Shown piece by piece: positions 19,299-27,563 of a stretch of 39,037 nucleotides of DNA. Under the pieces are notes generated by a model that was given only the letters and a program-made list of their open reading frames with translations, searched no databases and was not told the DNA's origin. The stretch comes from a virus. Numbering within the stretch: position 1 is the first letter of the stretch; the number at the start of each line of letters is the position of its first letter. Both the position numbers and the translations under genes were made by a program. The stretch lies in UHGV virus genome UHGV-2079062; one strand, written 5' to 3'.

Positions 19299-21027
19299 TT
19301 AAAGCGAGCGGATCCCATAGGACTCAATGTGGTCAGACAGCGTGTCTTCTTTCCCGTACAGCATGGCTCTGCCAACCGCCATAATCAGCGCCACTGCACC
19401 ATCGATTTTGTTTTCCGCCTGCTCTTTGACGGGCTTCACCACATCATCGTTACCCGGAATGGTTTTGCCGACCACGTTGCCGATACACCAGGTCATGATG
19501 GGATTGCCATCATGATGAAAGCGCCCCGATTCAATTGCCGCTTCCAGCTCTTTCATCGGGTCGGACATGTTGGTGTAGTTCTGAATGATAGTGATGGGGT
19601 TCAGGTCTTCATCAGCAAGGTCATGTGACAACCCGGTCGCCCCGAAGGGGTCGATGGGTGACTCACTGACCGGGCTGATTTTGTTCGCCGCTTTGGCCTC
19701 CTCGAGGATGTAGCGATAATCCACCTCCGCACCATCGGTAACGGTCAGAACGCCCATTTCCACCCATTTCTGAAAGCGTTCGGCTGTCCGGCGATCTTCA
19801 TTTTTCTCGACGCTATACACCGTGTCATACGGTACCCAGAAACGCGGGGCCACACTGTAGTAATGCGTTTTACCGTCAATCTCGCGGGTATAAAGTCGCG
19901 CCATGCTGTTCATATCCAGCTTACGCGCCAGGTCAAAGGCCAGAATGCACGGCTGCCCCTCGAACTGCTCAAGAGTCAGTGATTTATCCTCGCAGCTCTG
20001 CCAGCTCACCAGGTTGAAATACGCCGAACGCGCCGACACCCAGATATTGAGGTGTTTTGTTTTAAAGACGTTTGCCAGACGGGCGTTATTTTTCGCACGC
20101 TGCTGCTGACTTAACAAAAATTCGCGATAAACCGACACGCCAATATTTGGATTGGCTTTTTCCAGCACCTGCGGGTCGGTCCAGTCGTCACCTTCATCAA
20201 CGGTATAGATGATCCCGAACAGTTCATCGTTAGGCACCGAGCCGTTGAGCATCTCGATGACTTCCCGCCGTTTGTCGTAGCACGGCCCCTCAATGTTGTA
20301 CCCGGCGGTGGTGATGGCCCACATCAGTGGCTGACGTCGCGCCCCCATCCCGGTAAGCATTGTGGTATAAAGCGCATCGGTGGCATGCTCGTGATATTCA
20401 TCAACCACGGCACAGTGGGGTGATGAACCATCACCTGGGTTGCCGATCAGCGGTTCAAACCGCGCGCCATCCTCCGGACGGTTCATGTTTGAGGCGTTAA
20501 CCTCAATCCCGAACGCTTCCGTCAGCATGGGTGTGCGTTTACACATCAGTCGCGCCGGGCGAAAGACTTCCCACGCCTGTTTCTCTGTCGTGGCACCGGA
20601 ATACACTTCCGCGCCAAACTCGTTATCACAGGCAAAACAATACAGGGCGACACCGGCAGAGATTGCCGATTTGCCGTTCTTACGGGGGATTTCGGTATAC
20701 ACGGAAGCGGCGCAGCCGGGAGCCTTTATTGACCCAGCCAAACGCACAGCAGATCACAAAGAGCTGCCACGGTTCCAGCGTGATGGGCATCCTCTTGAAT
20801 GCCCACTCCCCCTTGGTGTGTGGCAACAGCTGAATAAATTTCGCGGCCCGTTCAGCCAGGTCCTTGTCGAAGCGGTAACGAAACGACTTACTTTTTTCCG
20901 CCATCAGGTCATCAAGATGGCGCTGGCAGGCCTGAATCACAAACTGGCAGGCCACAATCTTTCCGCGCACGACATCACGGGCATACTGATTGGCAGCATT
21001 TACGTTGGGGTAAGATTTCCGGCTCAT
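19299..21027 (-). pseudogene. terminase large subunit, apparently frameshifted (N-terminal 20680..21027 and C-terminal 19299..20747 in different frames)
   Basis: N-terminal ORF ends ...[19 protein letters not shown] while the +1 frame continues ...[12 protein letters not shown] (Walker A) and the rest of TerL; frame switch localised to about 20690..20705. Confidence 0.75.
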
Positions 21028-21994: not shown

Positions 21995-22518
21995 ATGTAC
22001 TCCAATGAAGAAACCAGCGAAATAGCTGCCTTCATTCGTAGTAAACCTTTTTCATCAACGCAGTAATGGATTCTTTGAAGAGTCGCGATCAATACAACTC
22101 ACTAATGGAGAGACTTGTCTCACGCATGAGACAAATTTCCCGTTTGATTTAATGGACACTATAGAGGGACAGAATGCCTTCCTCACTCGAATCACATCAA
22201 TTAAGGAGGTTCAACATGTTTCATTCCACAAGTCATCAGGCTGTAATTATGGCAGCATCAGTTTGTGCCAAAGACCTTTTCCGCTTCACTTTGAGCCTGA
22301 TTCATTTCTACCTGACCGGCTCGCCTCTATCTTTTTAATCCCCGCTTTATCCAAATTGCATTGCCATAATGCCGACAACACACTGACATTCAAATCCAGA
22401 CTACCTCCAATAGTCTGACCGTACACCTATATAGTTTTAATTTTCATCAATCCATTTAACTATCGTTTAATTGTTGTCACATAGGATTCTGCTGTTTTTA
22501 ACAATACAGGATAATAAG

Positions 22519-22812
22519 ATGAAAAAAATGTTGTTTTCTGCCGCTCTGGCAATGCTTATTACAGGATGTGCTCAACAGACGTTTACTGTTGGAAACAAAC
22601 CGACAGCAGTAACACCAAAGGAAACCATCACCCATCATTTCTTCGTTTCGGGAATTGGACAGGAGAAAACTGTTGATGCAGCCAAAATTTGTGGCGGCGC
22701 AGAAAATGTTGTTAAAACAGAAACCCAGCAAACATTCGTAAATGGATTGCTCGGTTTTATTACTTTAGGCATTTATACTCCGCTGGAAGCGCGTGTGTAT
22801 TGCTCACAATAA
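22519..22812 (+). CDS. bor: Bor lipoprotein (serum-resistance protein)
   Basis: 97-aa ORF MKKMLFSAALAMLITGCAQQTF... with lipobox LITGC, near-identical to recalled lambda Bor; opposite strand just after Rz, as in lambda. Real start at ATG 22519 rather than track start 22471. Confidence 0.9.
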   Translation: MKKMLFSAALAMLITGCAQQTFTVGNKPTAVTPKETITHHFFVSGIGQEKTVDAAKICGGAENVVKTETQQTFVNGLLGFITLGIYTPLEARVYCSQ

Positions 22813-22843
22813 TTGCATGAGTTGCCCATCGATATGGGCAGCT

Positions 22844-23305
22844 CTATCTGCACTGCTCATTAATATACTTCTGGGTTCCTTCCAGTTGTTTTTGCATAGT
22901 GATCAGCCTCTCTCTGAGGGTGAAATAATCCCGTTCAGCGGTGTCTGCCAGTCGGGGGGAGGCTGCATTATCCACGCCGGAGGCGGTGGTGGCTTCACGC
23001 ACTGACTGACAGACTGCTTTGATGTGCAACCGACGACGACCAGCGGCAACATCATCACGCAGAGCATCATTTTCAGCTTTCGCATCAGCTAACTCCTTCG
23101 TGTATTTTGCATCGAGCGCAGCAACATCACGCTGACGCATCTGCATGTCAGTAATTGCCGCGTTCGCCAGCTTCAGTTCTCTGGCATTTTTGTCGCGCTG
23201 GGCTTTGTAGGTAATGGCGTTATCACGGTAATGATTAACAGCCCATGACAGGCCGACGATGATGCAGATAACCAGAGCGGAGATAATCGCGGTTACTCTG
23301 TTCAT
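22844..23305 (-). CDS. Rz: i-spanin Rz
   Basis: About 153-aa ORF with N-terminal TM helix and coiled-coil periplasmic domain, matching lambda Rz; start taken at MNRVTAII. Confidence 0.85.
22903..23085 (-). CDS. Rz1: o-spanin Rz1, embedded in Rz in the +1 frame
   Basis: 60-aa ORF with lipobox VVGC and proline-rich region ([13 protein letters not shown]), matching lambda Rz1. Confidence 0.85.
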
Positions 23306-23799
23306 TGCTGACCCCACAAACAGATTTCACGCTCAATCTCACGACGAGTCATGAGACCTTTCCATTGCTTACCGCCAGCATATGTCCAGCGACGTAGCTG
23401 ATCACATGCGCCTTTGATATCGCCTTGGTTTATTTTGCGAAGAAGCGTCGATGTTCTGAAATTGCCAGCACCCACGTTGTAAACGAATGAGTAAAGAGCG
23501 CCGCGCATTGTTTCCGGTATATCGACTTTGATGTACGGGTTAATTTGTCTGGCGACCGTGGCAAGGTCTTTATTCAGGAGGGCTTTGCATTCTGCTTTGG
23601 TATACGTTTTACCGAGCATGATGTCTTTTCCTGTATGCCCGTGACATACAGTCCATACACCAACAATATCTTTGTATGGTATGTAGCTGACACCTTCCAG
23701 ACCATCGTTACCACTTGGGCCAGTAATTAACACTGATGCTATAGCAATTGCTCCGCCACCAATAGCAGCAGCAACGGCTTTTCGTAATGATGGAGGCAT
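23302..23799 (-). CDS. R: SAR endolysin (lysozyme, phage 21 R-type)
   Basis: 165-aa ORF with N-terminal Gly/Ala-rich signal-anchor-release domain followed by lysozyme catalytic region. Confidence 0.9.
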
Positions 23800-24014
23800 T
23801 ATTCACCTCTCGCAGCCTTGCGCTTATCTTCTTTAATCTTGAAATAAAGGTTTGTCAGGTACGTCAGCAGGCCAAATACCAGGCTACCCAGCACACCTAT
23901 TGCTGCCCACTGTGAGGGCGTGACTTTATCGAGCAGCTGTAAAAACCAGTAACCGGCACTACCTGCTGAGGTGCCATAGGCGACACCCGTTGTTAACTTA
24001 TCCATGGATTTCAT
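23799..24014 (-). CDS. S: pinholin (phage 21 S-type), dual-start MKSM
   Basis: 71-aa ORF with two TM segments and charged C-terminus; Met1/Met4 dual-start motif. Confidence 0.9.
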
Positions 24015-24575
24015 AACCCCACCTCGCAGACAAAGCGGGTGTAAATTGAGGGAATACTACGAAACGTAACAGACTCGGAGTCAGTGAATAACTCAGGTAT
24101 TGGGTTATCAGCTAATATCGAGACTCAAAAAATGGAAAAACCCGCTCGACGGCGGGTTTAAGCTGTGTGACGAAGTAACCACTCTTAACAGCATAACCAA
24201 TTTTTTACGTACGTAAACCACTAAATGATATTTGCGAGAATGCTACCGAGTATTGAAAACACCACTACAAATACATAAGCAAATCCCAACAAATAATTTC
24301 CAGTGTTATTTTTAGCCGGTTTAAATTGAACCTTCAAATTATAGAGCACTTATAAATAACAGCCGTTAATATAAATTGGCTAATAGATTTATTTTTATTC
24401 AGCAAAGAGCCATGAATAGGATTCGATAGAAAAAAGTTCAGATAAAAATAGAGATCTACTTCACAAATCAAACGAGAAACCAAAACTTACATCTTGAAAT
24501 AATCACATTGATTAGATGAATATTTATCGCGCAGTGACATCATTTTTTAATAATAGTTCAAAAAAAGGGCTCACG

Positions 24576-25673
24576 ATGAAAAAATTAACAGTGGCAATTT
24601 CTGCTGTAGCTGCATCAGTACTGATGGCGATGTCTGCTCAGGCAGCTGAAATTTATAATAAAGACAGTAACAAGCTGGATCTGTACGGGAAAGTTAATGC
24701 TAAGCACTACTTCTCCTCTAATGATGCAGATGATGGTGATACTACTTATGCCCGTCTTGGCTTCAAAGGTGAAACCCAAATCAACGATCAACTGACTGGT
24801 TTCGGTCAGTGGGAATATGAATTCAAAGGCAACCGCGCTGAATCTCAAGGTTCCTCCAAAGATAAAACCCGTCTTGCCTTCGCTGGCCTGAAATTCGGTG
24901 ACTACGGCTCCATCGATTACGGCCGTAACTACGGTGTAGCATACGACATCGGTGCGTGGACTGACGTCCTGCCAGAATTCGGTGGTGACACTTGGACTCA
25001 AACCGACGTGTTCATGACTCAACGTGCAACTGGTGTTGCAACCTATCGTAACAACGACTTCTTTGGTCTGGTTGATGGTCTGAACTTTGCTGCTCAGTAC
25101 CAAGGCAAAAACGATCGTAGCGATTTCGATAACTACACTGAAGGTAACGGTGATGGCTTCGGTTTCTCTGCTACCTATGAATACGAAGGATTCGGTATCG
25201 GTGCAACTTATGCGAAATCTGATCGTACCGACACTCAAGTTAATGCAGGGAAAGTTCTTCCTGAAGTATTTGCTTCCGGTAAAAATGCAGAAGTTTGGGC
25301 CGCAGGTCTGAAATATGACGCTAACAACATTTACCTGGCCACTACCTATTCTGAAACCCAGAATATGACTGTATTTGCTGATCACTTCGTTGCTAATAAA
25401 GCCCAAAACTTCGAAGCTGTTGCACAATATCAGTTCGATTTCGGTCTGCGTCCGTCCGTTGCTTACCTGCAATCTAAAGGTAAGGATCTTGGAGTATGGG
25501 GCGATCAGGACTTAGTCAAATATGTTGATGTAGGTGCAACCTATTACTTCAACAAAAATATGTCTACTTTCGTTGATTACAAAATCAACCTGCTTGACAA
25601 AAATGACTTCACTAAAGCACTCGGTGTAAGCACTGATGACATCGTTGCTGTAGGTCTGGTTTACCAGTTCTAA
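24576..25673 (+). CDS. nmpC: outer membrane porin, OmpC/OmpF/PhoE family (prophage NmpC/Lc-type), apparently intact
   Basis: 365-aa ORF from [23 protein letters not shown] signal peptide to C-terminal ...VYQF; located between Q and the lysis genes on the opposite strand as in DLP12/PA-2. Track ORF 24516 start is an upstream in-frame extension. Confidence 0.9.
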
Positions 25674-25810
25674 TCTGATTACGAAAAAGATATGTTGCGG
25701 GAGGCGTTGCCTCCCCAACATATAAGTGGCTCCCTCAAGCCACTTCCTTTAGAAGCACAACCTTGCTTCTAACTATATAAACCTTCTGTTATATATTACC
25801 CTTTATTTTT

Positions 25811-25835
25811 GGGGGCGTCTCAACGCCCCATTTTT
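25811..25835 (+). terminator. rho-independent terminator downstream of porin gene
   Basis: GGGGGCG-tctcaa-CGCCCC stem-loop followed by TTTTT. Confidence 0.6.
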
Positions 25836-25862
25836 AATAACTTTTAGTAAATAATTGGCATA

Positions 25863-26246
25863 TTAATTAGAGTTATTAACAACGATATCCATCTCTAACC
25901 GGATATCTAATGCCATTAACATCCCTTCAATTATGCCCTCAGCCTTCTGTAACCTTTTCCCGATATAACCATCAGAGCAGCAATGCTTACCTGCCAGTGA
26001 CATGAATGTCATACCGACTACATAATAATCTACTAATAAATCGTGCAAATCGCTGTTGTTCTTTTTCAGACGGGCCATGCACCCGCAAATAATCATCGCG
26101 TCATCGTCACAACATTGCGGGCGAGATTTTACTTTTGAAGTAATTAATCCCTTAAAACCGGCGGCAATGGACGACCAGGTCACATCTTCATGATTATTAG
26201 CCGCCCACGCTCCCCAACGCTCAAGAACCATCTGAATATCACGCAT
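25863..26246 (-). CDS. late-gene antiterminator Q (DLP12 QuuD-like)
   Basis: 127-aa ORF with Cys-rich zinc motif; ATG at 26246 preceded by GGAG; positioned upstream of late/lysis region after rusA-ylcG. Confidence 0.8.
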
Positions 26247-26331
26247 CAACTTACTCCACAAAAATCAGACCAGAACGCCAATTACAAGCAAAAATCAACA
26301 AAACAGTATTAGTTGATTGTTATCTCTGACT

Positions 26332-26469
26332 TCATACTCCTGCTCCTGTCAGGGTTTTGGCGTAATTCTTCAGTATTCGGTAATCGGTCAAAACAGAACT
26401 GGGGAAACGATATAAGCGCAGGCGCATCCAGCGGTGGCGAAGAAGTTCTGCCATATTAAACTCAAACAT
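26332..26469 (-). CDS. ylcG: small protein YlcG-like
   Basis: 45-aa ORF ([45 protein letters not shown]) translated by hand; start overlaps rusA stop (TGATG). Confidence 0.55.
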   Translation of the reverse strand: MFEFNMAELLRHRWMRLRLYRFPSSVLTDYRILKNYAKTLTGAGV

Positions 26470-26831
26470 CATTCATTCCCCATTTCGGTGATGGTCAGTT
26501 CCAGCCTCCCACCTTTGGTAACAGGCATCTTCACAACGCGGTAATCAACGACCTGAGCATCATCCAGCCAGAAACCTGCTTTAGTGAGTGCGTCAAAAGC
26601 GGCTTTTTGCAGATTATCCAGGTCACGGCGACGGCGATCCGGCATGTGGCACTCAATGCGGATTTTCACAGGGATAGCCAGGCCGATATCCAGCATTGCG
26701 TTTTTAATGATTCTGGCGACGTTATCGCGGTATGCCTGCCCCTCTGCGCTGACGTGCGTGCGCCCGCGATTATGGCGGTAATAGCGATTATTGCTCGGAG
26801 GCCAGGGTAATGTGATGCTGTAGGTATTCAC
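26469..26831 (-). CDS. rusA: crossover junction endodeoxyribonuclease RusA (Holliday junction resolvase)
   Basis: 120-aa [21 protein letters not shown]... matching recalled RusA. Confidence 0.9.
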
Positions 26832-26850
26832 GCCTTAATAATCCCCTCTT

Positions 26851-27045
26851 TCAGCCACATAACCTGTGTTTTCGCCATACCTTCCAGCGCGCATTCTTTT
26901 GCATATGCAGCATCGACTTGCTTGGCATGCCCTTTACCGGCAATCTTCTGTATGCGCTAAACCTAGATAGAATCCACTCTGTGCTCATTGAAGCCCGCTC
27001 TATGCTTCCTTTCTGGTATTGAAGGGATTGAGATGGGCTAAGCAT
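26851..27045 (-). pseudogene. ninF-like 5' start fused out of frame to a YbcO/DUF1364-like 3' remnant
   Basis: ORF begins [18 protein letters not shown] (NinF-like) then diverges; a different frame over 26832..26955 encodes ...[29 protein letters not shown] resembling the YbcO C-terminus, preceded by in-frame stops. Confidence 0.4.
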
Positions 27046-27385
27046 TATTGGCCTCCTGCATCAGGAGAAAGACAATCATGGCGGCGCGGAGAGGTCTGGT
27101 ATCAAATATTGGGCTTACGCCTTTTGCATCCACACACCATTCAGTTAACTGGTCTAAGATAGAAATCCTGTATTTCTCAATAATCGGCCATGAAGCGCTC
27201 GGATCATTGCAGTAGTCAGGCAAATGATTTAATGGCTCAAAAGTTGTATCAGCATTTCCGTAATACCATTTGTTGGTGTTATTCCCTGATGTTTCCGGTT
27301 TACTTGCCCAAAGGCCTTTAAAAATTATGTCTCCTACCATTCTGTTAATTTCAAAATCACTTAACTGTGAATAATCCATTGTCAT
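27038..27385 (-). CDS. hypothetical nin-region protein (115 aa)
   Basis: ORF with GAGGAA ribosome-binding site; ATG overlaps stop of upstream ninE-like gene (ATGA); no family recognised. Confidence 0.5.
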
Positions 27386-27563
27386 TTCCTCGCACGATAT
27401 CTTAGCCACCGGATATCCCACAGGTGAGCTGTGTAATTGAAGGTTTTTACGTCAGATTCTTTTGGGATTGNNNNNNNNNNNNNNNNNNNNNGGAGCGTTT
27501 CGTTGGAAGGTATTTGCAGTTTTCGCAGATGATGTCGGTGAAACTTCGTCGCTGTCGCCTCAT
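27382..27563 (-). CDS. NinE-like protein, interrupted by assembly gap
   Basis: N-terminal [24 protein letters not shown] (27563..27492) and C-terminal [28 protein letters not shown] (to 27382) flank the N run; the two halves are not in the same frame across the 21-N placeholder. Confidence 0.55.
27471..27491. other. run of 21 N: assembly gap or masked bases
   Basis: Directly visible in the sequence. Confidence 0.98.

Follow-up and report, generated by a model that had tools for sequence, protein, structure and literature searches.

The stretch considered here, a viral genome of 39,037 nucleotides (UHGV-2079062; from here on the window, with all positions counted along its full length), carries a porin gene between the gene for the antiterminator Q and the holin gene S, and this gene is read on the plus strand, opposite to its two neighbors. 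The window holds an undamaged copy of the long-known and ordinary Lc/NmpC cassette, an arrangement already described. An earlier note, made from the sequence of the window, had rediscovered this arrangement correctly, with one wrong inference: that the porin was inserted within the Q-dependent late operon, so that late transcription from the promoter pR' must run antisense through it. The comparison with related phages points to a different layout. The Q-dependent late promoter probably lies not next to Q but between the porin and the holin, where a homolog of a pR'-qut-terminator module is found at 24218..24136, past the porin on the holin side, and nothing similar occurs between Q and the porin. 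We consider it likely, therefore, that an intact lysogenic-conversion cassette sits between the conserved core of Q and its cognate pR' module, and that the late transcript starts beyond the porin. With pR' in this position, the porin would be outside the late transcript, and late transcription would not need to cross it.

The porin itself is complete. Its translation from the ATG at 24576 yields 365 residues, starting with a 23-residue signal identical to the one annotated for Lc of phage PA-2, followed by a mature N-terminus AEIYNK, and ending in ...GLVYQF. The protein covers the Pfam family Porin_1 (PF00267) from position 1 to 337 of 337 (E 4.7e-157, 523 bits) and, with 529.8 bits, exceeds the NCBIfam cutoff for the OmpC subfamily (484 bits). 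Residues 24-365 match, end to end, the mature chains of the solved OmpC, OmpK36, PhoE and OmpF structures, and these alignments begin at the cleavage site annotated for Lc (J02580). Both the C-terminal Phe (...VYQF) and the PEFGG constriction-loop motif (LPEFGGD, residues 132-138) can be read from the translation, and the end-to-end alignment with the OmpC, OmpK36 and PhoE crystal sequences (E about 1e-137) suggests a 16-stranded trimeric beta-barrel with channel activity. In comparison with PA-2 Lc, 361 of the 365 residues are identical, with equal length and no indel, and the frame, free of IS5, frameshift or truncation, is recovered by BLAST in one piece, versus two for K-12 and 434B. What had been claimed for the gene thus stands: it encodes a full-length OmpC-family porin with signal peptide and C-terminal Phe, it lies between a Q gene and a holin gene recognized on the minus strand by their matches to PF06530 and PF04971, and it looks intact here, although it is disrupted by IS5 in the K-12 prophage DLP12. 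The alignment with Lc and NmpC that the earlier note had proposed as a check likewise detected neither truncation nor frameshift.

The likeness to known cassettes extends beyond the porin. The lc gene of PA-2 (J02580; Blasband, Marcotte and Schnaitman 1986) has the same length, signal, orientation with respect to S, R and Rz, and upstream region, including both annotated CRP sites. The proteins differ by four substitutions (R99H, Q149G, A151T and V154F, relative to Lc); in the DNA, the window lacks 11 bp of the AT-rich region, and its holin leader shows a 17-nt difference. In DLP12 and in 434B, a hybrid phage whose late region derives from DLP12, quuD-nmpC-essD-rrrD-rzpD-borD are found in the same order and on the same strands, and a DLP12-derived copy is 99.2% identical in DNA over 24030..25835. 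In K-12 MG1655 and 434B, however, IS5 follows codon 346 of nmpC, which is annotated as a pseudogene (in two fragments in K-12), whereas the gene of the window is uninterrupted. The same Q-porin-S layout, with the porin on the opposite strand, is found in K-12, 434B, mEp332, PhiR70_1, ev099 and ev017. Of 5,426 complete E. coli genomes, 2,465 contain the 1.8-kb segment at a coverage of at least 80%, as do 36 phage records, among them PA-2, mEp332, 434B and several ECOR-derived and infant-gut lambdoid phages. This wide distribution identifies it as the known Lc/NmpC lysogenic-conversion cassette, in agreement with the arrangement that the earlier note had recognized. As an autonomous unit of a lambdoid late region, with a putative promoter and a terminator of its own and a product directed to the envelope, the cassette resembles lambda bor and lom, which are expressed from the prophage and lie inside the late transcript; unlike them, it would be located upstream of pR', at the early/late boundary.

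The position of the late promoter was deduced from the relatives of this particular Q. Pfam assigns the protein to PF06530, which has been named as the Q21 family (PMC9388147), although its match to the solved Q21 is weak and the relationship distant. It is 77-84% identical to Q of 933W, PhiR40_1 and 1H12 (77-81% when 933W-type Stx phages are considered), and in all of them the similarity stops at ...LEMD (residue 120, window 25887), which marks the end of the conserved core; the last seven codons are cassette-specific. When the Stx2 phage II sequence that follows Q was aligned to the window, the only real similarity was found at 24218..24136, on the minus strand. These 83 bp align with Stx2 phage II (L004:2922-3003) and PhiR40_1 (L005:3462-3544), and the segment occurs in 363 phage records. 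The curated record of 933W labels the matching stretch as pR', qut and rho-independent terminator, and 24217..24190 aligns base for base with its 'pR'; putative late promoter' (L012:702-729). A likely start can also be placed. Sy et al., using differential RNA sequencing, mapped the PR' start in the Sakai Stx phages to a base 258 nt ahead of the 3' end that Term-seq defines for tR', 'closely associated with Q'. Counting 258 nt back from the second terminator, in either Stx2 phage II or 933W, leads to a base 7 nt past the promoter -10, which corresponds to A 24183 in the window. Moreover, seven phages that carry the porin are identical from the -35 through the T-run, save for one hairpin base (G/T) and one nucleotide in the length of the T-run, whereas the AT-rich DNA beside it varies by substitutions and an 11-bp indel. 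On these comparisons, 24218..24136 would constitute the cognate promoter, Q-utilization and terminator module upstream of the late genes, with a promoter activity predicted from homology.

The arrangement around the module differs from that of the Stx phages in spite of the conservation of its parts: in 933W and in Sakai Sp5/Sp15, whose Q proteins are 77-81% identical to that of the window, the 83-bp promoter-qut-hairpin segment is about 77-78% identical. In Stx phages, the module overlaps the last codons of Q, and beyond it come a second terminator (at +258), tRNAs and stx. In the window, a 1.67-kb opposite-strand cassette separates Q from the module, the holin follows directly, and the first hairpin is the sole candidate terminator. 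In those Stx phages, a hairpin homologous to 24159..24138 (L004:2980-3006 / L012:762-784) has a run of 7 T behind it, although the PR' transcript, as mapped, continues to the second terminator, 258 nt downstream. One of the two 'CRP binding sites' annotated in the PA-2 record (L001:1067-1087, about 24160..24180 in the window) falls on the start and qut part of the module, where TAAGAGTGGTTAC is found at L001:1079-1091; this feature may be a Q-utilization or pause element and not a CRP site.

The insertion of opposite-strand genes at this junction is not restricted to porins. Nothing intervenes between Q and the pR' module of 933W, of other Stx phages or of PhiR5_1. In contrast, PhiR40_1 (L005:2951-3397) and PhiR55_1 (L017:1790-2236) have one opposite-strand open reading frame (ORF) of phrog_3152 between Q and the module, vB_EcoS-569R4 (L016:775-2170) has two, one of them phrog_2802, and the porin phages have the 1.67-kb porin cassette. 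Delimited by these alignments, the cassette of the window spans about 25886..24219, between the conserved core of Q and the pR' module (24218..24128, minus strand). Phage 1H12, with a Blc lipocalin gene after Q (L003:3035-3559), was also considered as an example of the same architecture, but was not counted, as its match to the module is weak (score 27).

Two other locations for the promoter of the late genes have to be weighed. In lambda, pR' is found directly downstream of Q, and the model underlying the earlier note transfers this layout to the window, so that Q-modified polymerase would start next to Q and run about 1.8 kb antisense through the porin to S. Besides the lambda precedent, this model can draw on the hairpin 25725..25690 which, followed by CUUUUUCG on the minus strand downstream of Q, is readable as tR', and on the fact that the Q-porin spacer always accompanies the porin in phage records (36 records each). 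However, nothing in the spacer (25862..25674) resembles the pR'/qut of this Q family: the highest-scoring local alignment (score 21) falls on an AT-rich run, and the minus strand of the spacer contains no promoter detectable in a consensus scan. Since, in addition, the homolog of the 933W module sits at 24218..24136 and the relatives of this Q that have other opposite-strand cargo keep the module beyond that cargo, a promoter adjacent to Q is very improbable. A phage-82-type pR' next to Q, with features taken from PMC5001585, was also tried and dropped, because Pfam places this Q in the Q21 and not in the Q82 family.

The second location is that of essDp, the sigma-E-like promoter published for DLP12 lysis. 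According to this proposal, a promoter of the sigma-E type, back to back with the porin start, would mainly drive the lysis and late genes, with Q acting there, and the 933W-like module would be only a downstream terminator/qut element. Both RpoE and Q(DLP12) are reported to raise essDp activity. The study of DLP12 lysis (PMC7918800) cloned a regulatory region that it took from Rueggeberg et al. 2015 and described as '-121 to +650', and its primers map to 24648..24629 (minus) and about 23890..23910 (plus), a length that fits once the 11-bp indel is considered. This mapping sets +1 at about 24527 on the minus strand, at the right distance from GAACTA-N17-TCACT, the hexamers of which were read from the sequence. 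Several arguments oppose this view. Porin phages differ from one another in the AT-rich stretch around 24527 but hardly at all in the 933W-like module, and phages with no such AT-rich region still have the same module as their pR'. Published work on the Q21 family indicates that loading of Q needs a sigma-70-dependent promoter-proximal pause beside the Q-binding element. We therefore regard a main role for essDp as unlikely. Even under this model the porin ORF is outside the transcript: essDp and the 933W-like pR' are both on the holin side of the porin, and its coding sequence is left uncrossed under either.

The placement of pR' between the porin and the holin has its own weaknesses, which should be set against the evidence above. 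The assignment derives from homology to a 933W promoter annotated just as 'putative' and from the mapping of the Sakai start, and the conversion of the Sakai coordinates depends on that spacing of 258 nt and on an assumed offset between versions. The -10 sequence, TATGCT, matches at just 4/6 positions, and pR' was missed by the consensus scan. The mapped 3' end of the Stx tR' is at the second terminator and not at the hairpin homologous to 24159..24138, so that efficient termination at this hairpin, as the sole candidate tR' here, is a presumption. The DLP12 work, as described, puts a sigma-E-type lysis promoter elsewhere, at about 24527 (PMC7918800). Lastly, the prophage carries an N gene, and shortly after induction N-modified polymerase coming from pR could read on past Q and traverse the porin antisense. 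If the late promoter is located beyond the porin, such read-through of the early pR transcript would be the only way to cross the porin antisense, and a candidate terminator would stand in its way.

The 3' end of the cassette contains an element overlooked by the earlier note. By position, length and sequence, the 167 nt after the porin stop codon are the published IpeX element. IpeX (Castillo-Keller, Vuong and Misra 2006) occupies the same position in the 3' untranslated region (3'UTR) of a phage porin, has the same 167-nt length from stop codon to terminator and is nearly identical, nothing different being detectable at the sequence level; as conveyed by the papers that cite that work, it is a product of the porin transcript that represses ompC/ompF. 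The 3'UTR of the window (25674..25840) is 99.1% identical to the PA-2 and DLP12-derived copies, and it is strongly structured (minimum free energy -62.9 kcal/mol, z = -10.1). RNAalifold found no compensatory change among seven copies, which are too similar for covariation, so the case for the structure is a thermodynamic one. An Rfam search of 22000..27500 at permissive E-values returned two chance-level matches only and no IpeX family, for which Rfam has no model. The terminator scan agrees with the claim that the porin has its own terminator, detecting on the plus strand a hairpin followed by ATTTTT, which starts 138 nt past the porin stop codon and ends 28 nt short of that of Q.

The complementary strand of this region is also of interest, since the reverse complement of the first IpeX hairpin forms the candidate minus-strand terminator mentioned above, 137-180 nt past the Q stop codon. 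The T-run is present only on the minus-strand side, and the hairpin is conserved in seven phages, although the T-run is down to 4 U in two of them; from its sequence, it appears a plausible terminator for unmodified polymerase leaving Q. Because Q and the porin converge, a Q mRNA ending at this hairpin and a porin/IpeX RNA ending at 25835 would overlap. One could go further and propose that the gap between the Q core and pR' is a recurrent 'docking slot' for opposite-strand cargo, in which the facing 3' ends of Q and the porin provide a sense/antisense coupling driven by pR and not by pR', a proposal to which we give only a small chance. If it were true, the overlap, of about 150 nt and perfect complementarity, would be the sole place for real sense/antisense interplay: Q transcripts made upon induction could titrate or destroy IpeX and lc mRNA or, alternatively, transcription of lc could keep down leaky expression of Q in the lysogen, much as paQ does in lambda. 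As a separate observation, the best sigma-70 consensus match in the region (25997..26026, plus strand; GTGACA-18-CATAAT, 10/12) falls within Q but on the other strand, a position reminiscent of that of the lambda antisense promoter paQ.

On the other side of the porin, the AT-rich stretch to which the earlier note attributed 540 bp is real but shorter, since only about 355 bp (24220..24575) are AT-rich; the GC fraction of 24015..24219 is about 0.45, and this part corresponds to the late promoter module and the holin leader, not to porin regulatory DNA. The consensus scan gave nothing convincing upstream of the porin, nor at pR', and both promoters were consequently assigned by homology or by eye. 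The possible porin promoter and essDp, both located by eye only, would overlap back to back within 24494..24559, with starts a few bases apart, so that polymerase bound to one would exclude the other. The 11 bp absent from the window, at 24296/24297, represent one copy of a TTATTTGTTGG-like direct repeat and are present in six other porin phages. This indel changes the frame of a minus-strand ORF at 24221..24349, which also lacks any family match and is thus argued not to be a gene. Two more ORFs, at 24334..24483 on the minus strand and 'ORF1' (25512..25721), were rejected as genes for want of family matches.

All these elements can be integrated into a simple scheme, in which the cassette would be a self-contained opposite-strand unit made of an AT-rich regulatory region, a general-diffusion porin, a 167-nt IpeX-equivalent 3'UTR and a terminator. 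In the lysogen, the cassette would be transcribed on its own, the porin would reach the outer membrane, and the 3'UTR RNA would lower OmpC and OmpF. As suggested by the near-identity to PA-2 and DLP12, this decrease would change permeability and remove OmpC as a phage receptor; in the PA-2 system, conversion is said to remove the phage's own receptor. Upon induction, Q produced from the pR transcript would act at pR', downstream of the cassette, and the Q-modified late transcript would start at about 24183 and enter S-R-Rz without crossing the porin gene. The sequence comparisons establish what the porin is and that it is intact, as well as the homology, position and conservation of the pR' module; promoter activity in this prophage, expression of the porin and the terminator function of the two minus-strand hairpins are predicted components of the scheme.

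A different possibility is that the porin is a silent passenger, intact but unexpressed and with no effect on the envelope. In the title of a cited paper, the porin gene nmpC of E. coli B is called 'quiescent', and the lack of a promoter upstream of the porin in the consensus scan would fit this idea. Nevertheless, viable phages have conserved the reading frame and the signal peptide as well as the 3'UTR and the terminator, and NmpC of Perceval, a related prophage copy, is expressed in an LF82 lysogen 10-fold above the local background, so we consider silence decidedly unlikely. In PA-2 lysogens, Lc is reportedly a major outer-membrane protein.

If, by analogy, the cassette of the window is expressed, a strain carrying an intact lc/nmpC could make an extra general porin together with an IpeX RNA that lowers OmpC and OmpF, with consequences for the permeability to antibiotics and nutrients and for the sensitivity to OmpC-dependent phages. 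The earlier suggestion that the porin could alter outer-membrane permeability and receptors is in line with this, as the published work on Lc and IpeX backs an effect on outer-membrane composition. Knowledge of such effects in PA-2 and DLP12 dates back to the 1980s-2000s, and nearly half of the complete E. coli genomes contain the cassette. The useful correction concerns the architecture: the cassette most likely lies between Q and the late promoter and not inside the late transcript, so that those who annotate or model such prophages should not take it for granted that late transcription collides with porin expression.

Table 1. Features in and around the porin cassette of the window (positions in the whole stretch).
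Feature	Position	Strand	Basis or details
bor homolog	22519..22812	+	PF06291
Spanin Rz	22844..23317	-	same lysis gene order as annotated in 434B
Spanin Rz1	22903..23085	-	
Endolysin R	23302..23799	-	PF00959 and PF03245 cited for the R/Rz set
Holin S, phage-21 type, first gene of the late/lysis transcript	23799..24014	-	PF04971, E 2e-35
pR' initial transcribed region (predicted)	24128..24183	-	contains TAAGAGTGGTTAC, qut homolog and hairpin
Hairpin then UUUUUCCAUUUUUU, only candidate tR' before the holin	24159..24138	-	terminator scan; first 'rho-independent terminator' of 933W
qut-homologous stretch	24176..24169	-	'qut' feature of 933W
Predicted pR' start	A 24183	-	258-nt Sakai spacing
pR' late promoter, by homology	24190..24217	-	-35 TTTACG 24217..24212, 16-nt spacer, -10 TATGCT 24195..24190
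Porin regulatory region, AT-rich	24220..24575	+	GC 0.285-0.305
CRP-site homolog	about 24448..24468		matches CRP feature annotated in PA-2 (L001:1363-1383)
Possible porin promoter	TTGAAA 24494..24499, GAATAT 24518..24523	+	by eye only
Porin ORF	24516..25673	+	contains the ATG at 24576
essDp, published DLP12 lysis promoter, sigma-E-like	24527..24559	-	GAACTA 24559..24554, TCACT 24537..24533, +1 about 24527
lc/nmpC-type porin gene, intact, 365 residues	24576..25673	+	family profiles and alignments
Signal peptide	24576..24644	+	as annotated for Lc in J02580
Mature porin	24645..25670	+	
Porin 3'UTR, IpeX RNA region, 167 nt	25674..25840	+	four stem-loops and terminator hairpin
Candidate intrinsic terminator, hairpin 25725..25690 (15 bp, one bulge) then CUUUUUCG	25682..25725	-	minus-strand fold
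Intrinsic terminator of the porin/IpeX transcript	25812..25835	+	GGGGCGTCTCAACGCCCC then ATTTTTAATA; hairpin 25812..25829 then ATTTTT
Q antiterminator, Q21 family, QuuD-like, 127 residues from MRDIQ	25863..26246	-	PF06530 1-118/118, E 3.5e-53

Some additional features of the neighborhood deserve mention. The bor homolog, just past Rz, is the second moron of this late region to be read from the opposite strand and directed to the envelope. Further on, the gene for the large terminase (19299..21027, minus strand) appears as two overlapping ORFs of 115 and 482 residues, with the break near 20703, where the window is without 5 bp (AGGGA) relative to the TerL of SfV; this may reflect either a packaging-defective prophage or an assembly error. 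Positions 27472..27492 are a run of 21 N, masked or unresolved sequence within the nin region, with the DNA methyltransferase gene immediately upstream.

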